DNA from: a bacterium
GTDB lineage: Bacteria > UBA8248 > JACPRG01 > G963555815
Reading direction: 5' to 3'
Assembly (NCBI GenBank): GCA_965261595.1
Contig: CBDHDG010000006.1
Location: 640,001 to 704,000 of the forward strand
DNA length: 64,000 bases
The notes beneath the pieces were generated by a model that was not told the DNA's origin, ran no database searches, and was given only the letters and a program-made list of their open reading frames with translations. Below are positions 2,188 through 64,000 of this stretch, piece after piece (the stretch's first letter is position 1; each line of letters opens with the position of its first letter). The translations under genes and the position numbers were made by a program.

Positions 2188-3537
2188 ATGGAAGCCGTTG
2201 ACGTTCTGATTCGCGACGGGATTGTGGTCACACTGGACGACCAAGACAACATCCTTCGCGGCTCCGTGGCTGTCCGGGACGACCGGATCGTCGCGGTCGG
2301 AACCACCGAGGAGCAGGACGCGGCGGTGGAAGCCGGGAAGACCCTGGACGCCCGCGAGCGAATCGTCCTGCCCGGCCTCATCGACATGCACAACCACCTC
2401 CGGGACCTGGCGCCCGGCCTCTCCATCGGGCAGGGGCTCAAGCTGGACGACTACCTCCGGGCCGGCTGGGAGATGCAGCAACACCTGACCGCGGAGGACT
2501 ACCATCTCGGGGCGACGCTGGGGGCTGTCCGGCTGCTCAAGGCCGGCGTCACCACCGTCGTGGACCACTGCTATCCCTTCCACCTGCCGGGGCTGGAGGA
2601 GGCGGTCCTGCGGGCCTTCGGCGACACCGGCATCCGGGGGTGCCTGGCCCGGGGGATCATGACCAAGCCCTTCGAGCCCATCTGCGAGACGCGCGAGGAG
2701 GCCCTGAACCGCATCCGCCGGCTGGTCGATGACGGGAAGGTCCCGGCCGAGCGGCTCTTCATCGCGCCCGTCTCCTTCCGCCAAGCTCTCCCCGACGACT
2801 ACCGGGAGGCCAGAAAGCTGGCCGACGAGCTGGGCGTCGGGACGTACACCCACATCGCCGAGACCACGCAGGAGGTCGAGGGCATCATCAAGGAATACGG
2901 CGAGCGCCCCATTCACTTCCTACACGAATTGGGCTTCTCCGGACCCGGGACCGTCCTCGTCCACTGCGTCCTGCTGGACGACTCGGAGATCGAGCGCCTG
3001 GCGGAGACCCGGACGACCGTCGTCCACTGTCCCTCGAACCACATGAAGCTGGCCAAGGGGATCACGCGCGTGCCGGACCTGCTGAAGGCCGGGGTGAACA
3101 TGACGCTGGGCGTGGACTTGATGGAGAACCTGTGGGTCGAGATGCGCAACGAGCTTCAGCTTCAGAGCATCGCCAACCTGAACCCCCAGGCCGTCCCCCC
3201 GATGGCCCCGCTGCACATGGCGACGCGCAACGGCGCGCGGGCGTTGGGGATGGAAGGCGAGCTGGGCGTGCTCAAGGCCGGGGCCAAGGCCGACATCACC
3301 ATGGTGGACATCGGCGGCGCCTCCGCCCACCCCTTCATCGACGCCGTGAATCATCTGCTTTGGCGGACCGAAGCGGCCGACGTCAGGACCGTTCTGGTGG
3401 ACGGGAAGATCGTCCTGGACGACGGGAAGCTCCAGACCCTCGACGAGGCCGAGACGCTCGACCGCATCGAAAAAGCCGCCCACGCCTACATCCGCCGGGC
3501 GGGGAAAGAGGGTTTGGTTCCGGATTACGCGCGGTGA
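2188..3537 (+). CDS. Amidohydrolase family protein (MtaD/SsnA-like deaminase)
   Basis: 'LPGLIDMHNH', 'HIAET', 'VHC', 'HCPSNHMKLAKG', 'GAKADI'; ATG 2188 after CAGGAG. Confidence 0.88.
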   Translation: MEAVDVLIRDGIVVTLDDQDNILRGSVAVRDDRIVAVGTTEEQDAAVEAGKTLDARERIVLPGLIDMHNHLRDLAPGLSIGQGLKLDDYLRAGWEMQQHLTAEDYHLGATLGAVRLLKAGVTTVVDHCYPFHLPGLEEAVLRAFGDTGIRGCLARGIMTKPFEPICETREEALNRIRRLVDDGKVPAERLFIAPVSFRQALPDDYREARKLADELGVGTYTHIAETTQEVEGIIKEYGERPIHFLHELGFSGPGTVLVHCVLLDDSEIERLAETRTTVVHCPSNHMKLAKGITRVPDLLKAGVNMTLGVDLMENLWVEMRNELQLQSIANLNPQAVPPMAPLHMATRNGARALGMEGELGVLKAGAKADITMVDIGGASAHPFIDAVNHLLWRTEAADVRTVLVDGKIVLDDGKLQTLDEAETLDRIEKAAHAYIRRAGKEGLVPDYAR

Positions 3538-41787: not shown

Positions 41788-42720
41788 TTGAAGATCGACA
41801 TTCACGCCCATGAGTTTCCGGAAAACTACCTGCGCGAGATTCACCGCATGGTCGAACGGGGGGAGTTCCCCGAGGTGGCGGAGACCCTGACGCCGTGGCG
41901 GATCGACGACCACCTCGCCCTCATGGAGCGGGAGGGCGTCGATATGCAGGTCCTCTCGCTGGCGGCGGCCCGATACGTGGAAGACCGGCCCCAGGCCCGG
42001 GCCCTGGCCCGGATGGTGAACGAGGCCTTCGCCGACGCCGCCGCGAAGCACCCCGGGAAGTTCGTCGCGTTCGCCTGCGTGCCGCTCGCCTTCGTGGACG
42101 ACGGGATCGCGGAGCTGGAGCACGCCGTGGGGACGCTGGGGATGCGGGGGCTCATCCTGGGGACGAACGTCGCGGGCAAGCCCTTGAACGCGCCCGAGCT
42201 CCGCCCGTTCTTTGAAACGGTCAACCGGATGAAGCTGCCCGTCCTCATCCATCCGATGTACCCGGACTGGCCTGAATCCTACTCCGATTACCGCCTCGAC
42301 CTGTGGCTCGGCTGGCCCTATGAGACCACCCACGCGGTCAGCCGGATGATCCTCTCGGGGATATTCGACGACTTTCCGGATTTTCCCCTCATCGTCTCCC
42401 ACCTGGGGGCGAACCTGCACTACATGTGCGAGCGGATCGGAAACGCGTCCCATCTGGGCTCGGCGAAGGCGGGCGTGATGGAATACCTGCGGCGCTTCTA
42501 CTACGACACGGCCGGTCCCGTCCCGGCGGCGGCGGTCGGCTGCGCTCTTGAGATGTTCGGCAGCGGGAAAATCCTCTTCGGCTCCGACGCCCCCTTCGGG
42601 CCCGGCCACGGAGAGGCGTTCATCCGCAAGGGGATCGCCTGCATCGAGGATCAGGCCCGCGGCGGCGAGGAGAAAGAGGCCATGTTCTCCGGCAACGCGC
42701 GCGGGATTCTCGGAATTTAG
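41788..42720 (+). CDS. Amidohydrolase-2 family (ACMSD-like decarboxylase/hydratase)
   Basis: 'IDIHAH', 'LIHP', 'SHLGA', 'YYDTA', 'ILFGSDAPF', 'GNARGIL'. Confidence 0.9.
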   Translation: MKIDIHAHEFPENYLREIHRMVERGEFPEVAETLTPWRIDDHLALMEREGVDMQVLSLAAARYVEDRPQARALARMVNEAFADAAAKHPGKFVAFACVPLAFVDDGIAELEHAVGTLGMRGLILGTNVAGKPLNAPELRPFFETVNRMKLPVLIHPMYPDWPESYSDYRLDLWLGWPYETTHAVSRMILSGIFDDFPDFPLIVSHLGANLHYMCERIGNASHLGSAKAGVMEYLRRFYYDTAGPVPAAAVGCALEMFGSGKILFGSDAPFGPGHGEAFIRKGIACIEDQARGGEEKEAMFSGNARGILGI

Positions 42721-42809
42721 GCCGGGTTTCTCACAAAGCTGATGGTCTCGTGTTTGGCTTAGGCTTTGTCGCGTTGATGGTGGCGAATACACGCAACGGT
42801 CAGTTGTTC

Positions 42810-42835
42810 GGGCGGGGACGGGGACCCGCCCCTAC
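42810..42835. repeat. GTAG-type REP unit
   Basis: GGGCGGG...CCCGCCCCTAC hairpin. Confidence 0.65.
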
Positions 42836-42868
42836 GGGTAAAGAGGGGTTTTTTGCGTGATTATGCCC

Positions 42869-42897
42869 TTGACACATAGTGCCACAAGATGTATATT
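42869..42897 (+). promoter_or_regulatory. Sigma70 promoter in IS1595 left end
   Basis: TTGACA-N17-TATATT; same at 63422-63450. Confidence 0.8.
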
Positions 42898-42909
42898 ATA
42901 GGGTATGAG

Positions 42910-43068
42910 CTACTCATCCCCTGAATCATCCGATCTTTCTTTGACGATACGGTCTACTTCGGCCATCACTTCTTCCCCGAAAATGCACGTCATCAGGTGC
43001 ATGTCGTCATGCTTTAGCGCATCTTCGGGAAGTTTCCGTTCCTTTTTCTTAGGAGCATCTTGACCCAT
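42910..43068 (-). CDS. Small conserved IS1595-associated protein (52 aa)
   Basis: MGQDAPKKKERKLPEDALKHDDMHLMTCIFGEEVMAEVDRIVKERS...; homologous to 63465-63620. Confidence 0.6.
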   Translation of the reverse strand: MGQDAPKKKERKLPEDALKHDDMHLMTCIFGEEVMAEVDRIVKERSDDSGDE

Positions 43069-43712
43069 GCAAAGCCTCCTTTCCATGCTGGACAAGTATA
43101 AAAACGATGACGAATGCCGCAATGCCATTGAGGAAATTCGCTGGCCCAATGGCGTTGCCTGTACTCGGTGCGGGGATATGAGCATCGGAGAAATTCCGAA
43201 GCGCAATCAATACCAATGCCACGGTTGCGGATATCAGTTTTCCGTGACGAGTGGAACCATCATGCACGATTCCCGCCTTCCCTTCCGCAAGTGGTTCATG
43301 GGGATCTACCTCATGTGCGTATCGAAGAAAGGGGTATCGGCAAACCAGTTGAAGGAAACTCTCGGAACCACATATCGTACGGCTTGGCACCTTTGCCACC
43401 GCATTCGTGAGGCAATGGGAAATGACCCCCTTGAAGGTCCTACGCTGGTGGGCGTTGTCGAGGTGGATGAAACCCTGATCGGCGGCAAGAAGAAGGGCAA
43501 GGGGCATGGATACAGGGGGAACAAGCAGTGGATCGCTGGAGCCATCCAGCGCGGCGGGAAGCTCCGCGTCCAGCGCATTCCGAACATTCGGCGCAAGACC
43601 CTTCATCCCGCATTTCCCATATGGATGATAATTTTTAACGCCCCGAAGGCCGTTTTCTCGTGTAAAATCAAAGTGTTGGCCTCTCCCTGCCATCATCTTG
43701 CGAGGGGACCCG

Positions 43713-45059
43713 ATGGGTGAAGCGAAAAAGAGGCCGTTGAGGCTCCAATTCGACGGTCGGCTCAGGCTGGAGTTTCACGGAGCAAAGGTTACGAGTGACG
43801 CCGGTTTGCTTGCCTATCGTGAACTGGATGAGGTGTTGGGGCTGACGAAGGCGGCCGAGGGGTTTCTGTCCGATTCACGGACGGGCGGGAACACCCGGCA
43901 CAGCCTCACCGCTTTGGTGCGCCAGTCGGTCTACAGCCGCCTGGCAGGATATAAAGACACCAATGATGCCGAGCGGCTCTGTGTCGATCCCGCCATGCGT
44001 CAGGTGGTTGGGGGGCGAGCGAAGTATCACACCGCTGCCTCCACCAGCCAGATGAGCCGATTCGAGACGCAGACCCTCACCCGGCCCCTTAACCTCAAGG
44101 CGCTGAGCGGTCTGCCCGGTGTGTTGGTGGATCGTGTCCGCAAACGCAAGCCGATTCGCAAGCTGATCCTGGACATGGACAGTTCGGTCAGCCCGACCCA
44201 CGGTGAGCAGGAAGGCTCTTCCTACAACGGCCACTTCGGCTGCACCTGCTATCACCCACTGTTTTGCTTCAACCAGTTTGGCGATCTGGAGCGGGCGCTG
44301 TTGCGCAACGGCAAGGTCCACAGCGCTGATGACTGGTGGTCTGTATTGGAGCCGGTGGTAGCTCGCTACCGGGATGCGAAGGTCTGTCGGTTTTTTCGAG
44401 GCGACGCGGCATTTGCCAAGCCGGAGGTGTACCGATACCTTGAGGCGGAGGGCTACTCCTATGCGATTCGGCTTCCGGCCAACGCCATCTTGTACAGGGA
44501 CATCGAATGCCTTCTGACCCGGCCGGTTGGCCGACCGCCCAAAAGGCCCATTATCTTCTACCACAGCGTCTCCTATCAGGCGGCTAGTTGGGAGAAGCCT
44601 CGCCGGGTGGTGGTGGCGGTCGAGTGGCACCAGGGCGAGTTGTTTCCAAGAGTCAGCTTCATCGTGACCAACCTGCACTGGCGGGAAGAGAACGTCGTGA
44701 GGTTCTACAACCAGCGTGGGACGGCGGAGCAGTGGATCAAGGAGGGCAAGTACGCCCTGAACTGGACGCGCCTGTCCTGCCACGGCTTTGAAGAGAACCA
44801 GGTCCGCTTGCAACTATTTGCCTTGGCGTACAACCTGGCAAACTTCCTGCGGCGGCTGGCGTTGCCCAGAGCGGTGAAGCACTGGTCGCTGACGACGTTA
44901 CGCGAGAAGCTGATTAAGATTGGGGCCAAGGTGGTCACCCACGCCCGGTACACCACCTTCCAGATGGCCGAGGTGGCCGTGCCGCGTCAACTGTTCAGGG
45001 CAATCCTTGAACGAATTCGACGGTTGTGGTTACCGCCTCCCGTACCAGATACCGGATGA
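43713..45059 (+). CDS. IS1380-family transposase
   Basis: 'TSDAGLL', 'LDMDSS..PTHG.QEG..YNGHF', 'RGDAAF', '[15 protein letters not shown]'. Confidence 0.95.
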
Positions 45060-45499
45060 CGGAGCAGATGGCCCGGAAGCTTAGTGACGTGGTGGAGACG
45101 GGGGATCAGTCTGCGCCGAACTCCCCTGAGTGTGCCGGTAGAGCTGGGTTTTCAAGGGATTGCGGCTTTAGGACGGCCGTTGCCCCTCGATTGAGCAGAG
45201 GGTTCTGCAAAGAGACCCTGAATCTGTAGTAAAATGGGGTACTTTGATGACACAGGAGGACCGCAGGATGGCTAAGAGTGGTCATCTGGGAAATCCCGGT
45301 TTAAATCAAGACAACTCTTGTATTGACCACCCGTTGCTCTTTAACTCAATTAGAGCCCTCTTTACCGGGGCTGTCAACACCATTTCGGGCGCCTGAAACC
45401 CTGATCGGAGCGGTATCCGCCATTGGAAAACCATGTCAGCGCCGGCGTGTAAACGGGCTTGACCACCAGGTTTGGAGTCTTCGTCATTTTGCCCTTGTG

Positions 45500-45908
45500 T
45501 GGACTCCGCTTAGGGTCGCTAGACAGGCACCGGGCATCATCGCTTGATTCTCTCCAAGATAAGGGCAAATGTCTTCCTGGATACACCGACCTCGGCCAAC
45601 TGGAAGGTGATGTGGCGGGCGTACCGCACGAGCCGGCCGCCCATTTTGAGGAGCTTAAGCTGAAGGCCGCGTAACGACCAGTGCTTGATCCCTCTCGGCA
45701 GGCCAGCAATCCCGCATCCGAAGTCATTCTGGTTCCGTGAAACTCAAGCCTCAGCCGACGCTCAAAACGGACCTTCAACGCCCACTTTTTCGCTTCACCC
45801 ATTGGATTACCCCGCGAGAGGATGGCTCGGGGAGGCTCATGCATTGATTTTACTCCAGAAAATGTCCTCCGGTCCGACAAAAGTTATGATCCATATGGGA
45901 TATCTGGG
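45500..45908 (-). pseudogene. Internally deleted IS1380 relative (MITE-like)
   Basis: N-term [37 protein letters not shown] joined to C-term-like 'KLLKMGGRLVRHARHITFQLAEV'; left boundary approximate. Confidence 0.8.
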
Positions 45909-46268
45909 TTCATGACTTCATCCAGCGCACAGTGAAGGACGAGGCCGAGGCGATCTATACGGACGAGTTGAAGTCCTATATCGGTGTAGAGGATCATGAC
46001 ACACGCCATGAAACGGTTAACCATTCCGAGGAAGAATGGGTGATTGGAGATGTTCACACCAACAGCATCGAGGGCGTGTGGTCCCTGTTCAAGCGGTCCA
46101 TTATCGGAACCTTCCACAAGATGAGCGTCAAGCATATGGACCGTTACCTTGAAGAACTCGAATGGCGACACAACAACCGAGACAACCCCCACATCTTCAT
46201 GGACACTCTTAAGCGAATCATGAACACGGAACCCCTAGAGTACAAGAGACTCACGGCTTGAGGAAGGG

Positions 46269-47435
46269 CTACGATAGAATCCCATCGGTCTTGAGTTTTG
46301 AAATCAGATAGGATTGGTCTCTATCGCCCTTTGTGCTGTTGCAAGCTCCGCACAGAAGTTGAAGGTTTTCGAGTCCATCATGACCTCCCTTGCTCCGTGG
46401 CACAATATGGTCAACCGTCAAATTCCTGAACTGGAAAAACGTCCGGCAACCGCCGCACTTCCCTTCCTGAAGCCCAAATAGCTGATGCCGGTGCGTCCGG
46501 TAATTCGGGAGCCGTTCAAGGTCCGTCCGCGTTGGTATGTCTGTTCGGCGGATAGGCTCGAAGTTATGGAACAGGTCAATCTCCTTGCGGATGCGGACCT
46601 GAACCAAGTCTGACGCCTTCTCCGCTATATCGATCCCCACCCAGTGACGGTGAAGCCTCTCGGACGCGACACAAGCCGTGGCGCATCCTGCGAATGGGTC
46701 CAGCACCATGTCGTCCTCATTGCTACTCGCCTTGATGATCCGGCTTAGGAGGGATAGGGGCTTTTGGGTAGGATATCCTAATCGCTCCGTCGCTTGTGAT
46801 CCAATGGGCCGGATATCGCTGATGATGTCCTGAATGGGGTTTCCTTCTGATACAGAAAGATACCTCTTATGCTGAGGGACTTTCCCTTTTGGGGGCCAAT
46901 AGACATGACCTGTTGCATCCAAAACATCCAGTCTTTCTTGACATGACATTTCTGCATATCCTTCCGGGAATGGAAAATCCTTTGGCAATGCACGATCTGG
47001 AGGTATTTCCCAATGCCGACCCTTGTTGGATGGGTTCACGTCACGCCACGGCATTCCTGATGAACCATGTCTGACCCCCGGACCATCGAGAGTTACTAAA
47101 CGGAACCTCCCTCTTTCATCTGAGAATCGGTAGAAATTTTCAACATATGTCGGATCGTAGTCCTCATAGACTCGATTCCAGGTGTATTTACCTGACTTTG
47201 TATAGAACAAAATGGTGTCATGGATAGGCCCCCATCGCTTCGATCTTCCATGCGCCCCAGTGCGCTTCCAGATAGTTTCATTGCGGAAATTTCTGCGTCC
47301 GAACACCGCATCCATAAGCAACTTCAGGTAATGGCTGGCCGTTGGATCGCAATGGAGGTAGATTGATCCTGTCTCCTTCAAGACTCGGCGCATTTCAAGC
47401 TGCCTCACCGCCATCATGATCAGGTAGGACTTCAT
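46269..47435 (-). pseudogene. Beta-class DNA methyltransferase fused to C-terminal HNH nuclease, N-terminus removed by IS
   Basis: 'IYLHCDPTASHY', 'GYPTQKP', 'LDPFAGCAT'; HNH 'CGGC...VDHIVPRSKGGHDGLENLQLLCGACNSTKG'; DPPF motif missing. Confidence 0.85.
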
Positions 47436-48840
47436 TCCCCCGCTCTAGGGTTTTGTTGGACACTCGATTGATCCATGATTCATGGAGAAAGGGGTGTCGC
47501 GATGAACGAACAAAAGCAAGAGGGGGCTTTGGCGGAGGGCGCCCGCAGGGCGAACGGAGCCAAGGCCCCAGGGCATCGCAGTGAGCGGGGTCGGTTCTCC
47601 TGCCAGGCGCAAGCGGGAGGCGGTCCTGCGTCTTTTGCGGGGCGAGAGCCTGGAGACGCTCTGCCGCGAGTTGGGCACGACAGCGGCTCGGCTTTCCGCC
47701 TGGCGCGAGGCGTTCCTTCGCGGGGGCGAGGCGGCGCTCAAAGCCCGCCCGGCGGATGAGCGGGCCGAGGAGAACGCCCGGCTCAAGGCCAAGGTGGGCG
47801 AACTCACGATGGAGGGCGAGGTCCTGCGGGAGAAGATCGACCGCCTGGAGGCCGGCCGCCCTTTAGCCGGCAGGAGGTGGAGGCGATGAGTCAGGCCCGC
47901 TTCACCTCCACGGGCAGAGCCTACGGCCTGAAGCGGGTGTGCGCCCTTTGGGGCTTGGCGCGCTCCACGGTCTACGCGCAACGGCGGCGAGAGGCGGTCC
48001 CCGTTCATGAACGCCCCACGCCCAATAAGCGCGGCCCTGTGGGCCCGTGCACCGATGCGGAACTCCTCGGCCACATCCGGCAGGTCCTGGAGGACTCTCC
48101 CTTCCATGGCGAGGGCTACCGCAAGGTGTGGGCGAGGCTGCGCTTCGCGGGCATCCGCACCAGCAAGGAGCGGGTGCGTCGCCTGATGCGGGAGGCGGGG
48201 CTTCAGGCCCCCCACCGGGTGGGCAAACCCCGAGGTCCCAAGGCCCACAACGGGACCATCCGCACCGAGCGGCCCGACCGAATGTGGGGCACGGACATGA
48301 CGACGACGGTGACCACCGAGGAGGGGGTGGCCTCGGTGTTCGTGGCGGTGGATCACTGCTCGGTGGACTGCGTGGGGATCCATGCGGCCAAGAGCGGCAA
48401 CCGCTTCGAGGCCCTGGAGCCGATCCGGAAGGGGGTCGCCGAGCGCTTCGCCGGCTTGGAGGCGGACGTCGCCGAGGGGCTTAAAGTTCGTCACGACCAC
48501 GGCCCCGCCTATCTGTCCGATGACTTTCAGCGGGAGATCGCCTACCTGGGCATGACCAGTTCGCCCAGCTTCGTGCGGGCGCCCGAGGGAAATGGCTACT
48601 GTGAGTGGTTTATCCGCATCTTGAAGGAGAATCTCCTGTGGGTGCGCTCTTTCGCCACCGTAGAGGAACTGCGGTGGGCGCTGCTTGAGTTCAAAAACCT
48701 GTACAACCATCATTGGATTCTCGAGGGCTACGGCTACCGAACGCCGGCCCAGGCAAGGCAGGAAAAACTCGCTCAAGTTGCGGAGGCCGCATGAGGTCGA
48801 ATACCCTCACCCGAGTGTCCAATAACCCAGGGGCGGTCCA
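47436..48840 (+). mobile_element. IS3-family element B (orfA +1 frameshift; orfB intact, WGTD)
   Basis: TCCCCCGCTCTAGGG...GGCGGTCCA, 1405 bp. Confidence 0.93.
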
Positions 48841-48841
48841 G

Positions 48842-50245
48842 TCCCCCGCTCTAGGGTTTTGTTGGACACTCGATTGATCCATGATTCATGGAGAAAGGGG
48901 TGTCGCGATGAACGAACAAAAGCAAGAGGGGGCTTTGGCGGAGGGCGCCCGCAGGGCGAACGGAGCCAAGGCCACAGGGCATCGCAGTGAGCGGGGTCGG
49001 TTCTCCTGCCAGCGCAAGCGGGAGGCGGTCCTGCGTCTTTTGCGGGGCGAGAGCCTGGAGACGCTCTGCCGCGAGTTGGGCACGACAGCGGCTCGGCTTT
49101 CCGCCTGGCGCGAGGCGTTCCTTCGCGCGGGCGAGGCGGCGCTCAAAGCCCGCCCGGCGGATGAGCGGGACGAGGAGAACGCCCGGCTCAAGGCCAAGGT
49201 GGGCGAACTCACGATGGAGGGCGAGGTCCTGCGGGAGAAGATCGACCGCCTGGAGGCCGGCCGCCCTTTAGCCGGCAGGAGGTGGAGGCGATGAGTCAGG
49301 CCCGCTTCACCTCCACGGGCAGAGCCTACGGCCTGAAGCGGGTGTGCGCCCTTTGGGGCTTGGCGCGCTCCACGGTCTACGCGCAACGGCGGCGAGAGGC
49401 GGTCCCCGTTCATGAACGCCCCACGCCCAATAAGCGCGGCCCTGTGAGCCCGTGCACCGATGCGGAACTCCTCGGCCACATCCGGCAGGTCCTGGAGGAC
49501 TCTCCCTTCCATGGCGAGGGCTACCGCAAGGTGTGGGCGAGGCTGCGCTTCGCGGGCATCCGCACCAGCAAGGAGCGGGTGCGTCGCCTGATGCGGGAGG
49601 CGGGGCTTCAGGCCCCCCACCGGGTGGGCAAACCCCGAGGTCCCAAGGCCCACAACGGGACCATCCGCACCGAGCGGCCCGACCGAATGTGGGGCACGCA
49701 CATGACGACGACGGTGACCACCGAGGAGGGGATGGCCTCGGTGTTCGTGGCGGTGGATCACTGCTCGGTGGACTGCGTGGGGATCCATGCGGCCAAGAGC
49801 GGCAACCGCTTCGAGGCCCTGGAGCCGATCCGGCAGGGGGTCGCCGAGCGCTTCGCCGGCTTGGAGGCGGACGTCGCCGAGGGGCTTAAAGTTCGTCACG
49901 ACCACGGCCCCGCCTATCTGTCCGATGACTTTCAGCGGGAGATCGCCTACCTGGGCATGACCAGTTCGCCCACCTTCGTGCGGGCGCCCGAGGGAAATGG
50001 CTACTGTGAGTGGTTTATCCGCATCTTGAAGGAGAATCTCCTGTGGGTGCGCTCTTTCGCCACCGTAGAGGAACTGCGGTGGGCGCTGCTTGAGTTCAAG
50101 AACCTGTACAACCATCATTGGATTCTCAAGGGCTACGGCTACCGAACGCCGGCCCAGGCAAGGCAGGAAAAACTCGCTCAAGTTGCGGAGGCCGCATGAG
50201 GTCGAATACCCTCACCCGAGTGTCCAATAACCCAGGGGCGGTCCA
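48842..50245 (+). mobile_element. IS3-family element B, tandem copy (orfB WGTH)
   Basis: 1404 bp; separated from the previous copy by a single G. Confidence 0.93.
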
Positions 50246-50293: not shown

Positions 50294-50477
50294 GTAGGGG
50301 CCGGTACGGGGACCGGCCCCTACATTTAAGGGCGATGCTTGTCTGGCAGAACGTTTGTCCGTGGCTGCACGGAGTGGGTTGGGTTGCTCATGAACCGGCT
50401 CATATCGGGAGACCGACGACCCGCCCCTCCGGGCACACAACGCTTTCCGTCGTAGGGGCCGGTCCCCGTCCCGGCCC
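50294..50477. repeat. GTAG-type REP units
   Basis: GTAGGGGCCGGTACGGGGACCGGCCCCTAC (50294-50323) and GTAGGGGCCGGTCCCCGTCCCGGCCC (50452-50477). Confidence 0.75.
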
Positions 50478-50604
50478 GTCACACTCCCAGAGGGAACAGA
50501 ATGCTGGAACTTGGTCAGCACCCGTCCGTTGGGTCAATGATTCAAAGCCAACTGGTTCAATCGACCTACACCGTTCGGGCGTTTAAGTTGGTGAGAAATC
50601 CAGC

Positions 50605-59382: not shown

Positions 59383-62300
59383 CCCGCATTTCCCATATGG
59401 ATGATAATTTTTAACGCCCCGAAGGCCGTTTTCTCGTGTAAAATCAAGGTGTTGGCCTCTCCCTGCCATCATCTTGCGAGGGGACCCGATGGGTGAAGCG
59501 AAAAAGAGGCCGTTGAGGCTCCAATTCGACGGTCGGCTCAGGCTGGAGTTTCACGGAGCAAAGGTTACGAGTGACGCCGGTTTGCTTGCCTATCGTGAAC
59601 TGGATGAGGTGTTGGGGCTGACGAAGGCGGCCGAGGGGTTTCTGTCCGATTCACGGACGGGCGGGAACACCCGGCACAGCCTCACCGCTTTGGTGCGCCA
59701 GTCGGTCTACAGCCGCCTGGCAGGATATAAAGACACCAATGATGCCGAGCGGCTCTGTGTCGATCCCGCCATGCGTCAGGTGGTTGGGGGGCGAGCGAAG
59801 TATCACACCGCTGCCTCCACCAGCCAGATGAGCCGATTCGAGACGCAGACCCTCACCCGGCCCCTTAACCCCTCAAGGCGCTGAGCGGTCTGCCCGGTGT
59901 GTTGGTGGATCGTGTCCGCAAACGCAAGCCGATTCGCAAGCTGATCCTGGACATGGACAGTTCGGTCAGCCCGACCCACGGTGAGCAGGAAGGCTCTTCC
60001 TACAACGGCCACTTCGGCTGCACCTGCTATCACCCACTGTTTTGCTTCAACTGGACCGCCCCTGGGTTATTGGACACTCGGGTGAGGGTATTCGACCTCA
60101 TGCGGCCTCCGCAACTTGAGCGAGTTTTTCCTGCCTTGCCTGGGCCGGCGTTCGGTAGCCGTAGCCCTCGAGAATCCAATGATGGTTGTACAGGTTCTTG
60201 AACTCAAGCAGCGCCCACCGCAGTTCCTCTACGGTGGCGAAAGAGCGCACCCACAGGAGATTCTCCTTCAAGATGCGGATGAACCACTCACAGTAGCCAT
60301 TTCCCTCGGGCGCCCGCACGAAGCTGGGCGAACTGGTCATGCCCAGGTAGGCGATCTCCCGCTGAAAGTCATCGGACAGATAGGCGGGGCCGTGGTCGTG
60401 ACGAACTTTAAGCCCCTCGGCGACGTCCGCCTCCAAGCCGGCGAAGCGCTCGGCGACCCCCTGCCGGATCGGCTCCAGGGCCTCGAAGCGGTTGCCGCTC
60501 TTGGCCGCATGGATCCCCACGCAGTCCACCGAGCAGTGATCCACCGCCACGAACACCGAGGCCATCCCCTCCTCGGTGGTCACCGTCGTCGTCATGTCCG
60601 TGCCCCACATTCGGTCGGGCCGCTCGGTGCGGATGGTCCCGTTGTGGGCCTTGGGACCTCGGGGTTTGCCCACCCGGTGGGGGGCCTGAAGCCCCGCCTC
60701 CCGCATCAGGCGACGCACCCGCTCCTTGCTGGTGCGGATGCCCGCGAAGCGCAGCCTCGCCCACACCTTGCGGTAGCCCTCGCCATGGAAGGGAGAGTCC
60801 TCCAGGACCTGCCGGATGTGGCCGAGGAGTTCCGCATCGGTGCACGGGCCCACAGGGCCGCGCTTATTGGGCGTGGGGCGTTCATGAACGGGGACCGCCT
60901 CTCGCCGCCGTTGCGCGTAGACCGTGGAGCGCGCCAAGCCCCAAAGGGCGCACACCCGCTTCAGGCCGTAGGCTCTGCCCGTGGAGGTGAAGCGGGCCTG
61001 ACTCATCGCCTCCACCTCCTGCCGGCTAAAGGGCGGCCGGCCTCCAGGCGGTCGATCTTCTCCCGCAGGACCTCGCCCTCCATCGTGAGTTCGCCCACCT
61101 TGGCCTTGAGCCGGGCGTTCTCCTCGTCCCGCTCATCCGCCGGGCGGGCTTTGAGCGCCGCCTCGCCCCCGCGAAGGAACGCCTCGCGCCAGGCGGAAAG
61201 CCGAGCCGCTGTCGTGCCCAACTCGCGGCAGAGCGTCTCCAGGCTCTCGCCCCGCAAAAGACGCAGGACCGCCTCCCGCTTGCGCTGGCAGGAGAACCGA
61301 CCCCGCTCACTGCGATGCCCTGGGGCCTTGGCTCCGTTCGCCCTGCGGGCGCCCTCCGCCAAAGCCCCCTCTTGCTTTTGTTCGTTCATCGCGACACCCC
61401 TTTCTCCATGAATCATGGATCAATCGAGTGTCCAACAAAACCCTAGAGCGGGGGACAACCAGTTTGGCGATCTGGAGCGGGCGCTGTTGCGCAACGGCAA
61501 GGTCCACAGCGCTGATGACTGGTGGTCTGTATTGGAGCCGGTGGTAGCTCGCTACCGGGATGCGAAGGTCTGTCGGTTTTTTCGAGGCGACGCGGCATTT
61601 GCCAAGCCGGAGGTGTACCGATACCTTGAGGCGGAGGGCTACTCCTATGCGATTCGGCTTCCGGCCAACGCCATCTTGTACAGGGACATCGAATACCTTC
61701 TGACCCGGCCGGTTGGCCGACCGCCCAAAAGGCCCATTATCTTCTACCACAGCGTCTCCTATCAGGCGGCTAGTTGGGAGAAGCCTCGCCGGGTGGTGGT
61801 GGCGGTCGAGTGGCACCAGGGCGAGTTGTTTCCAAGAGTCAGCTTCATCGTGACCAACCTGCACTGGCGGGAAGAGAACGTCGTGAGGTTCTACAACCAG
61901 CGTGGGACGGCGGAGCAGTGGATCAAGGAGGGCAAGTACGCCCTGAACTGGACGCGCCTGTCCTGCCACGGCTTTGAAGAGAACCAGGTTCGCTTGCAAC
62001 TATTTGCCTTGGCGTACAACCTGGCAAACTTCCTGCGGCGGCTGGCGTTGCCCAGAGCGGTGAAGCACTGGTCGCTGACGACGTTACGCGAGAAGCTGAT
62101 TAAGATTGGGGCCAAGGTGGTCACCCACGCCCGGCACACCACCTTCCAGATGGCCGAGGTGGCCGTGCCGCGTCAACTGTTCAGGGCAATCCTTGAACGA
62201 ATTCGACGGTTGTGGTTACCGCCTCCCGTACCAGATACCGGATGACGGAGCAGATGGCCCGGAAGCTTAGTGACGTGGTGGAGACGGGGGATCAGTCTGT

Positions 62301-63094
62301 GCCGAACTCCCCTGAGTGTGCCGGTATAGCTGGGTTTTCAAGGGATTGCGGCTTTAGGACGGCCGTTGCCCCTCGATTGAGCAGAGGGTTCTGCAAAGAG
62401 ACCCTGAATCTGTAGTAAAATGGGGTACTTTGATGACACAGGAGGACCGCAGGATGGCTAAGAGTGGTCATCTGGGAAATCCCGGTTTAAATCAAGACAA
62501 CTCTTGTGTTGACCACCCGTTGCTCTTTAACTCAATTAGAGCCCTCTTTACCGGGGCTGTCAACACCATTTCGGGCGCCTGAAACCCTGATCGGAGCGGT
62601 ATCCGCCATTGGAAAACCATGTCAGCGCCGGCGTGTAAACGGGCTTGACCACCAGGTTTGGAGTCTTCGTCATTTTGCCCTTGTGTGGACTCCGCTTAGG
62701 GTCGCTAGACAGGCACCGGGCATCATCGCTTGATTCTCTCCAAGATAAGGGCAAATGTCTTCCTGGATACACCGACCTCGGCCAACTGGAAGGTGATGTG
62801 GCGGGCGTACCGCACGAGCCGGCCGCCCATTTTGAGGAGCTTAAGCTGAAGGCCGCGTAACGACCAGTGCTTGATCCCTCTCGGCAGGCCAGCAATCCCG
62901 CATCCGAAGTCATTCTGGTTCCGTGAAACTCAAGCCTCAGCCGACGCTCAAAACGGACCTTCAACGCCCACTTTTTCGCTTCACCCATTGGATTACCCCG
63001 CGAGAGGATGGCTCGGGGAGGCTCATGCATTGATTTTACTCCAGAAAATGTCCTCCGGTCCGACAAAAGTTATGATCCATATGGGATATCTGGG
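59383..63094 (+). mobile_element. IS1380-family transposition unit, copy 2, interrupted by IS3 element B
   Basis: Same ends and tail as 43607-45908; TSD ATAAA; additional +2 frameshift near 59870. Confidence 0.93.
60052..61455 (-). mobile_element. IS3-family element B (intact orfA; orfB with WGTD)
   Basis: 1404 bp; 4-bp TSD CAAC inside the IS1380 transposase. Confidence 0.95.
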
Positions 63095-63270
63095 ATAAAG
63101 AGCGTTGCTTCCGCCTCTGGCTCGCCGAGAAGTCCGTCCGTGAAATGTGGAATGAAATGAGGCGGGAAATCTTGGAAAGCTCCATTCGAAGTTGGGTCAC
63201 GGATTGGGAGAGGGGCAAACAAGGAAGCTGGATCCCAAAGACCAAAGAGCATGGCTCAGAGGCTATAGCC

Positions 63271-63408: not shown

Positions 63409-63464
63409 CGTGATTATATACTTGACAAAGTGAGCCACAATATGTATATTTAGAGCATGAACAA

Positions 63465-63620
63465 TTACTCAACAACCTTATCCTTCTCGGACCTATCGGC
63501 AACAACTTTGTCGACCTCTTCCATGACTTCTTTTCCAAAAATGCACTCCATGAGGTCATGGTTGTCTTTCTCCAGAACGTCATCCGGCAATGTCTTTTTC
63601 TTGGGAGATTTTTGATCCAT
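63465..63620 (-). CDS. Small conserved IS1595-associated protein (51 aa)
   Basis: MDQKSPKKKTLPDDVLEKDNHDLMECIFGKEVMEEVDKVVADRS...; homolog of 42910-43068. Confidence 0.6.
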   Translation of the reverse strand: MDQKSPKKKTLPDDVLEKDNHDLMECIFGKEVMEEVDKVVADRSEKDKVVE

Positions 63621-64000
63621 GGAAAACCTCATATCCTTGATTGACAAATTCAACTGCGATGACAAATGCCGTGAGGCTCTTGAGGCAATACGCTGGCCCG
63701 CTGGCGTTTGGTGCACCCGTTGTGGCGACCTAAACGTACTTGAACTGACCAAGCATAATAGGTGGGAATGTAAATCATGCGGCTACCAGTTCAGCGTTAC
63801 GGCTGGAACCATTATGCACGATTCCCACCTCCCGTTGCGCAAGTGGTTTATCGCTATCTACCTCATGTGTGAGTCCAAAAAGGGCATTTCCGCCAACCAA
63901 ATGAAGCGGACGCTTGGCGTTTCCTACAAAACGGCTTGGTATCTCTGCCACCGAATCCGCCAAGCGATGGGAAACGATCCCTTTGAAGGCCCTACGCTTG
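63619..64000 (+). CDS. IS1595-family transposase, partial
   Basis: MENLISLIDKF...'IRWPAGVWCTRCG', 'FSVTAGTIMHDSHLPLRKWF', 'KKGISANQ', 'TAWYLCHRIR'. Confidence 0.92.
   Translation, partial: MENLISLIDKFNCDDKCREALEAIRWPAGVWCTRCGDLNVLELTKHNRWECKSCGYQFSVTAGTIMHDSHLPLRKWFIAIYLMCESKKGISANQMKRTLGVSYKTAWYLCHRIRQAMGNDPFEGPTL

Follow-up and report, generated by a model that had tools for sequence, protein, structure and literature searches.

What lies in the stretch of about 165 bp between the left end of an insertion sequence (IS) of the IS1595 family and the start codon of its transposase? The question is raised by two diverged IS1595 elements in a stretch of 64,000 nucleotides (nt) from a bacterium of the lineage UBA8248 (contig CBDHDG010000006.1), which is called the window throughout. 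The elements, W1 (copy 1, left end at 42856) and W2 (copy 2, left end at 63409), both carry in this region, on the strand opposite to the transposase, an open reading frame (ORF) for a protein of about 50 amino acids (aa). Judged by its sequence conservation, this minus-strand ORF very probably encodes a genuine protein; the region would then hold a second gene rather than being an empty leader. The small gene may well be a regulator of transposition whose target is the transposase protein and which probably works as an antisense RNA too; this is on balance the reading we favour.

Two leaders with a probable gene on the opposite strand

The first-pass annotation of the window had placed the end sequences, promoters and transposase starts of both copies where they are found here (Table 1). 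The leader, which it had put at about 160 bp, has a length of about 169 nt in both elements, counted from the −10 hexamer to the transposase ATG (43067 and 63619). The end sequence CGTGATTAT occurs twice in the whole window, at 42856 and 63409 and both times on the plus strand; the expectation from shuffled sequences is 0.17, and two occurrences were matched by 1 of 100 shuffles. Thirteen bases inside each left end begins the −35 hexamer of a TTGACA-N17-TATATT promoter, the sole promoter-like site in a 601-nt scan around each copy (42700-43300 for W1).

The minus-strand ORFs of 52 and 51 aa are present at both sites, each sharing one CATG with the transposase start. The two small peptides are identical at 26 of 47 positions (55%), with 35 of 47 positive (74%), and the DNA of the small genes is identical at 98 of 153 aligned bases (64%), so the peptide pattern is indeed kept despite the divergence of the DNA, as had been claimed. 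The N-termini of the transposases share 86 of 127 residues (68%). W1 is a dead element: an IS1380 insertion at about 43607 interrupts its transposase, and a right end of W1 was not found in the window, where the best inverted match reaches 16/24. W2 is truncated by the end of the window, and its shortened transposase scores 73.2 bits with NF033547, for which the cutoff is 75.

A conserved small-protein family

The small protein has no match among Pfam or NCBIfam families at E≤1. An initial word-index search for homologues reached just two close relatives, and profiles were needed to go further. With a profile of four sequences, 37 proteins (50% clusters) were found at E≤1e-3 among 1.84 billion representatives. 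These are mostly 45-60 aa long and follow the motif M.Q.PKKKRRKLP.D....D.E.ME.IFGKR.MKEVD. Three long matches made up of several stretches (P0025, P0035 and P0039) were left out of the fetched sequences, and five database ORFs (P0022, P0024, P0031, P0032 and P0042) extend into the antisense of a transposase. A profile of 30 sequences, scored against 4902 candidates, then matched 233 clusters (90% identity) at E≤1e-3. Of these, 120 clusters were listed; they are all without a Pfam domain, and the only name they bear is "hypothetical protein". Further searches with the small protein gave no match in PADLOC, no sequence match in a PDB profile search at E≤10, and in PHROGs only matches at E 0.056-0.079 to families of unknown function.

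When genomes were scanned with an alignment of 11 sequences, 71 stretches matched, 20 of which passed tblastn, yielding 19 loci. Eighteen of the 19 are true members of the family by hidden Markov model (HMM) search (E≤3.9e-19), and L019, which had matched the search pattern, was ruled out by its HMM E-value of 0.041. The 18 loci represent seven sequence types from Binatia, Acidobacteriota, two Bryobacterales genomes, Gemmatimonadetes and two unclassified metagenome-assembled genomes; together with W1 and W2, nine DNA sequence types were compared, and these are the nine types referred to below.

Over the nine types, the minus frame contains no stop and has a mean BLOSUM62 score of 2.34 per column, and the remaining five frames score 1.28, 0.90, 0.43, 0.43 and −0.02. 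The mean ratio of the proportions of nonsynonymous and synonymous differences (pN/pS; 35-codon core, 36 pairs) is 0.42 in the minus frame and 0.54, 0.96 and 1.65 in the plus frames. Since pS is 0.4-1.06 and hence near saturation, the true ratio lies below the computed value. The minus frame thus stays clear of a ratio near 1, which the first-pass annotation had named as a result that would refute its claim.

The arrangement of the two starts is conserved as well. The palindromic CATG is kept in eight of the nine types, though the N-terminus of the transposase varies by up to 5 residues; L003 has CATTATG in its place, so that the two starts abut with one base between them. All nine types have GGAG or GGGG 8-11 nt ahead of the transposase ATG, and the residues of the small protein encoded at this Shine-Dalgarno motif vary (AP, SP, PP, HS or NS). 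On the minus strand, GAGG stands 6-12 nt ahead of the small ATG, again in all nine. In most types it is the complement of the transposase Asn-Leu codons AAC CTC; in the L008 and L015 types, these codons read AAT CTT and a new GAGG is found within an N-terminal extension of the transposase. Each gene's Shine-Dalgarno motif sits inside the coding sequence of the other. Of the sequence-level signs for translation of the small ORF, the relocation of GAGG is the strongest.

Linkage to IS1595 elements

In all 18 true loci, the small gene lies head-to-head with an IS1595 transposase. The search for homologues linked to such transposases, which had been suggested as a check on the two peptides, thus came out in favour of the linkage in 18 of 18 true genomic members. 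When copies within a genome are compared, the (C/G)G..ATTAT motif proves to be the exact left end. In the related loci, the same sequence forms the end of the element, the right repeats match it at 18-24 of 24 positions, and target duplications of exactly 8 bp flank 11 of the 14 loci in which both ends were sought (7/8 in L015). Most of the nine types have TTGAC(A/G) or TTGAGA with a TAnnnT-like −10 at the same position.

Full-length relatives of the transposase carry PF12760 and PF12762. The assignment to IS1595 follows from the IS1595-type DDE domain and the N-terminal zinc ribbon, along with the repeats and 8-bp duplications of the related loci. We take the elements to belong to an ISNwi1-like subgroup of the ISfinder scheme, and their ends, CGTGATTAT, GGTAATTAT, GGTGATTAT and CGTTATTAT, presumably fit the ISNwi1 end consensus ggnnatTAT. 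The small gene is absent from three plasmid IS1595 elements whose transposases are 36-42% identical, and tblastn of the small protein against plasmid and phage collections returned one chance match (E 0.7) inside an ABC permease gene.

Several Bryobacterales copies are decayed. L015 (rc 3122-3292) has a broken transposase frame, and L014 and L017 are without the left end and promoter; the core of the small ORF is intact in all three.

Predicted structure and predicted binding to the transposase

An AlphaFold2 model of the small protein, built from 130 sequences, has a mean predicted local distance difference test (pLDDT) of 69.7. It consists of a disordered basic tail (residues 1-21) and two helices (22-30 and 32-50) that meet at an invariant glycine, without any strand or helix-turn-helix (HTH) geometry. 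In the consensus, M.Q.PKKKRRKLP forms the lysine- and arginine-rich tail and D.E.ME.IFGKR.MKEVD the helices. Foldseek with this model gave no match in the PDB, and the top score in the ESM Atlas was 0.77, to clusters named "hypothetical protein". Neither by profile nor by fold does the small protein match known families of small DNA-binding proteins and regulators (ribbon-helix-helix, HTH, Xis-like).

A co-fold of the L001 small protein with its own 295-aa transposase reached a score of 0.80, and the best of three controls reached 0.00. Agreement between the runs covers at least 6% of contacts, and the partner has a pLDDT of at least 35. Among reference pairs, 116 of 157 solved complexes and 2 of 215 mismatched pairs reached this mark. 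On the small protein, the contacts come from residues 8-43, on the hydrophobic face of the two helices, and on the transposase from residues 2-24, 74-98 and 272-276. Reading of the transposase sequence identifies the contacted parts as the putative N-terminal helix, the first HTH helices and a C-terminal segment. The model suggests that the small protein binds its transposase: the helical hairpin would dock its hydrophobic face on these three parts, and it is this docking, seen in one co-fold, that makes the small protein a candidate partner of the transposase.

Alternatively, the family could act on DNA. A strongly basic N-terminal tail is kept across it, the −35 hexamer lies inside the terminal repeat, and a two-helix protein of about 50 aa with an exposed hydrophobic face could dimerise. 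The small protein might then be, instead of a transposase binder, a DNA-binding factor that recognises the terminal repeats with their −35 hexamers and represses the promoter or shapes the transposition complex, as IS1 InsA does. This is doubtful in view of the missing match to any DNA-binding family of Pfam or NCBIfam at E≤1, of a model that has neither strand nor HTH geometry, and of a co-fold that puts the hydrophobic face on the transposase. Binding of DNA and binding of transposase are, however, mutually compatible roles.

A part of the element or a passenger?

The elements range from 1159 to 2342 bp in length. The smallest, L007 with 1159 bp, contains only the transposase and the small gene. 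Longer elements also contain passenger ORFs, which are encoded on the minus strand and follow the transposase stop, ahead of the right end; those of L001, L003, L004 and L005 comprise 124-228 aa, and one of the six that were scanned has a Pfam match. With such cargo in these four elements, the small gene might likewise be a passenger that serves the host or the maintenance of the element apart from the control of transposition, its position being an accident of compaction. That is unlikely: unlike the other passengers, the small gene is present in all nine types, the minimal L007 included, its start is locked to that of the transposase in eight of them, and its co-fold with the transposase passed the controls.

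The right ends of these elements have a layout of their own. In L001, L003, L004, L005 and L018, TTGAC(A/G) is found in the right terminal repeat as well, followed about 17-18 nt further on by TAnnnT (the −10 hexamers were read by eye), and the inward passenger ORF opens with an ATG that lies at nt 49-51, counted from the terminus. This leaderless-type layout mirrors that of the left end, and transcripts starting there would run antisense through the transposase gene towards the small gene.

The ORF on the plus strand

A further ORF, absent from the first-pass annotation, runs along the plus strand of the leader in W1 and W2. An ATG 6-7 nt past the −10 opens an ORF of 52-57 aa in six of the nine types (W1, W2, L001, L003, L004 and L005), where it ends in a TGA 3 nt ahead of the transposase ATG. 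As the two frames have their third codon positions in common, they are inseparable by which bases are conserved, and for the same reason the plus-strand ORF can be read as a shadow of the minus-strand gene, which on the sequence evidence is most likely what it is.

The opposite assignment would make the plus strand the functional frame: a leaderless upstream ORF of 52-57 codons, opened by the first ATG of the transcript, would couple the translation of the transposase to its own, and the minus-strand ORF would be its shadow. In a milder form, both strands would code. The leaderless-type ATG and the closely spaced TGA in six of nine types speak for it, as do the right ends of related elements, whose passenger ORFs start with the same layout (ATG at nt 49-51) and indicate that leaderless-type starts may be used in these hosts. 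Nevertheless, we consider the functional plus frame very unlikely. It is broken or out of frame in three of the nine types (L007, L008/L011 and L015-18), whereas the minus ORF is intact in all nine. It falls behind in BLOSUM62 score (1.28 versus 2.34) and in pN/pS (0.54 versus 0.42), and the plus-strand peptides of W1 and W2 align across just 27 residues. Synonymous resampling of the minus-strand protein leaves the plus frame open with P = 0.43-1.00 per type, so the minus protein by itself would lead one to expect an open plus frame. Finally, the relocated minus-strand GAGG would be left unexplained.

Possible antisense transcription and the proposed regulation

If the small gene is transcribed, its mRNA would be fully complementary to the leader, the ribosome-binding site and the start codon of the transposase, and would be read through the transposase promoter. 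Since such a transcript covers all of these, mutual interference is to be expected, and expression of both genes from one copy would be antagonistic through transcriptional interference and RNA pairing. Such a transcript could come from a promoter of non-canonical type, from the inward promoter-like sequence that the larger elements have at their right end, or from read-through that begins outside the element.

We therefore return to the small gene as a regulator of transposition. In this capacity, its product would act on the transposase protein by the docking described above, and its mRNA probably on the transposase message. Between the two directions, we lean slightly towards a negative regulator and away from an indispensable cofactor with a basic tail that supplies additional DNA contacts. 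From the first-pass reading, a conserved coding gene specific to this IS1595 subgroup stands, and the accessory or regulatory role that it proposed now has an in-silico argument in the co-fold. The mutual-exclusion switch did not gain in the same way; it would follow from the geometry of the locus, provided that the minus strand is transcribed.

Several results weigh against this proposal. Within 260 nt, no conserved sigma-70-like site for the small gene was found in the nine types, nor did the transposase body of the nine elements contain a site for it at ≥9/12. Near-identical copies are too sparsely polymorphic to reveal purifying selection: the seven Bryobacterales copies L008-L014 differ, the altered tail of L014 aside, at three synonymous sites and one K/R codon, and the four copies L015-L018 at three nonsynonymous sites. 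The 233 clusters of the small protein compare with 7953 of 8000 scored transposase candidates at E≤1e-30. One co-fold run out of three had a score of 0.00 (0.80, 0.00 and 0.81), and the calibration of the co-fold, which used self-made alignments, is only rough. Conservation lends the interface no support: in the small protein, its residues are conserved no better than the rest of residues 1-44 (entropy 1.46 versus 1.50, p=0.47), and the interface of the transposase is slightly less conserved than the rest (0.92 versus 0.71).

Synonymous-site conservation in the 5' codons of the transposase is only slightly raised (0.55-0.61 for scanning windows that start at 1-16 and 0.63-0.68 for starts 51-56, with 0.50 overall), too weakly to locate a signal. 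It is extremely improbable that the conservation stems from a structured leader RNA or from transposase-binding DNA sites, with an incidental ORF: the leader of about 169 nt is unusually long for an IS and the repeat and promoter are 81% conserved, but the fold energies of both strands do not differ from those of dinucleotide shuffles in the nine types (z −1.41 to +1.17), RNAalifold found no consensus pairs in the leader, and the DNA is 64% identical, yet the protein motif is kept in 233 clusters with conservative exchanges. The structured-RNA reading was rejected on the lack of excess folding on either strand and of a consensus structure.

A more elaborate arrangement can be imagined, in which the locus is a two-strand unit. 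The minus-strand mRNA would silence the transposase message, to whose leader, ribosome-binding site and start codon it is complementary, and also encode a binder of the DNA-binding region of the transposase; in most members, a leaderless plus-strand ORF sharing the wobble positions would hand ribosomes over to the transposase. We regard this as rather doubtful. If it held, the shared CATG would be the pivot of control at the levels of transcription, RNA and protein within 165 bp.

Comparison with known systems

In PMC8101967, the members of the IS1595 family are described as having a single transposase gene. The elements compared here depart from this description by a second conserved gene, which is found in the leader on the opposite strand in all nine types. 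The literature searched contained no description of a second or antisense gene in IS1595 elements. Such a hidden, conserved gene would change the annotation of IS1595 elements. In environmental metagenomes, transposases of this subgroup abound, as the proportion of scored candidates given above indicates.

IS10/Tn10 is controlled by a short antisense RNA: RNA-OUT, which is non-coding and stably folded, has its own promoter and pairs with the ribosome-binding site and start of the transposase message. As in the RNA-IN/RNA-OUT pair of IS10, the outward transcript proposed here would match, on the complementary strand, the start codon of the transposase and its ribosome-binding site. Unlike RNA-OUT, the antisense strand here encodes a conserved protein, and neither a fold nor a promoter was detected for it. 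IS1 InsA, IS911 OrfA and the Tn5 inhibitor are proteins read from the transposase strand that share sequence or domains with the transposase. Like these, the small protein would be an element-encoded factor that tunes transposition via the transposase or its DNA sites; unlike them, it is encoded on the opposite strand and resembles neither the transposase nor a known family. If the predicted binding is true, it would represent a kind of transposase partner that is new among IS-encoded proteins and has no relationship to the transposase itself.

The SR7/SR7P system of Bacillus subtilis (PMC7834092) is a dual-function antisense RNA that also encodes a small protein. The likeness lies in one transcript that could act in two ways, by base pairing and via an encoded protein of about 40-50 aa. 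SR7/SR7P differs in being chromosomal, outside any mobile element and without a shared start codon, and both activities are only inferred for the small gene described here. The locus is a clean natural case of two genes with one palindromic start and reciprocal ribosome-binding motifs, useful for studies of antisense overlap and of small proteins, and the minimal 1159-bp element L007 offers a directly testable system.

Coordinates and neighbouring elements

Table 1. Features of the two IS1595 copies, in positions of the window
Feature	Position	Strand	Basis or remark
Left terminal inverted repeat of W1, begins with CGTGATTAT and includes the −35 hexamer	42856..42879	+	W1/W2 similarity begins there
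Transposase promoter of W1, TTGACA-N17-TATATT, −35 within the terminal repeat	42869..42897	+	match 11/12
Plus-strand leader ORF of W1, 52 aa	42905..43063	+	ATG 7 nt past −10, TGA 3 nt ahead of transposase ATG
Small protein gene of W1, 52 aa and stop	42910..43068	-	ORF 43068..42913, stop 42912-42910
Transposase Shine-Dalgarno motif AGGAG	43051..43055	+	11 nt ahead of ATG; within small-gene codons 5-6
Palindromic CATG with both start codons, W1	43066..43069	both strands	
W1 transposase, 5' part (zinc ribbon, HTH, start of DDE)	43067..43606	+	PF12760 E 1.6e-12; NF033547 99.5 bits, cutoff 75
Small-gene Shine-Dalgarno motif AAGGAGG	43075..43081	-	6 nt ahead of ATG; within transposase codons 3-5
W1 transposase, 3' part, past the IS1380 insertion	45932..46261	+	aligns with C-termini of intact relatives
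Left terminal inverted repeat of W2	63409..63432	+	CGTGATTAT and W1/W2 similarity
Transposase promoter of W2, TTGACA-N17-TATATT	63422..63450	+	match 11/12
Plus-strand leader ORF of W2, 52 aa	63457..63615	+	
Small protein gene of W2, 51 aa and stop	63465..63620	-	ORF 63620..63468, stop 63467-63465
Shared CATG of W2	63618..63621	both strands	
W2 transposase, 5' part, ATG at 63619, continues beyond the window	63619..64000	+	PF12760 E 3.2e-11

Other mobile elements also lie in the window. An IS1380-family element is present twice in the window (43607-45913 and 59383-63108). The first copy, with a transposase at 43698-45059 (NF033539, 385 bits), is the one that interrupts the W1 transposase, and the second is itself interrupted by a 1405-bp element at 60052-61456; the insertions are thus nested. 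Two further copies of the 1405-bp element abut head-to-tail (47436-48840 and 48841-50245), the one at 60052-61456 being inverted. Each copy has overlapping ORFs of 102 and 305 aa, which, from the ORFs alone, looks like the two-ORF layout of IS3-type elements, and the tandem pair resembles a transposition intermediate.

Between W1 and this pair lies a minus-strand gene (46269-47435) for a DNA methylase (PF01555) fused to a C-terminal HNH nuclease domain (PF01844). Its end is 8 nt past the stop of the IS1595 transposase, and its start adjoins the 1405-bp element. Its origin could be that of a passenger in the decayed W1 or of a truncated host gene.

A GC-rich palindromic repeat of the GGGGACGGGGACCCGCCCC type occurs in three copies (42806-42836, 50294-50323 and 50451-50478). 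One copy and a T-run stand directly ahead of the left end of W1, which suggests that this element inserted next to a terminator-like site or one resembling a repetitive extragenic palindrome (REP).

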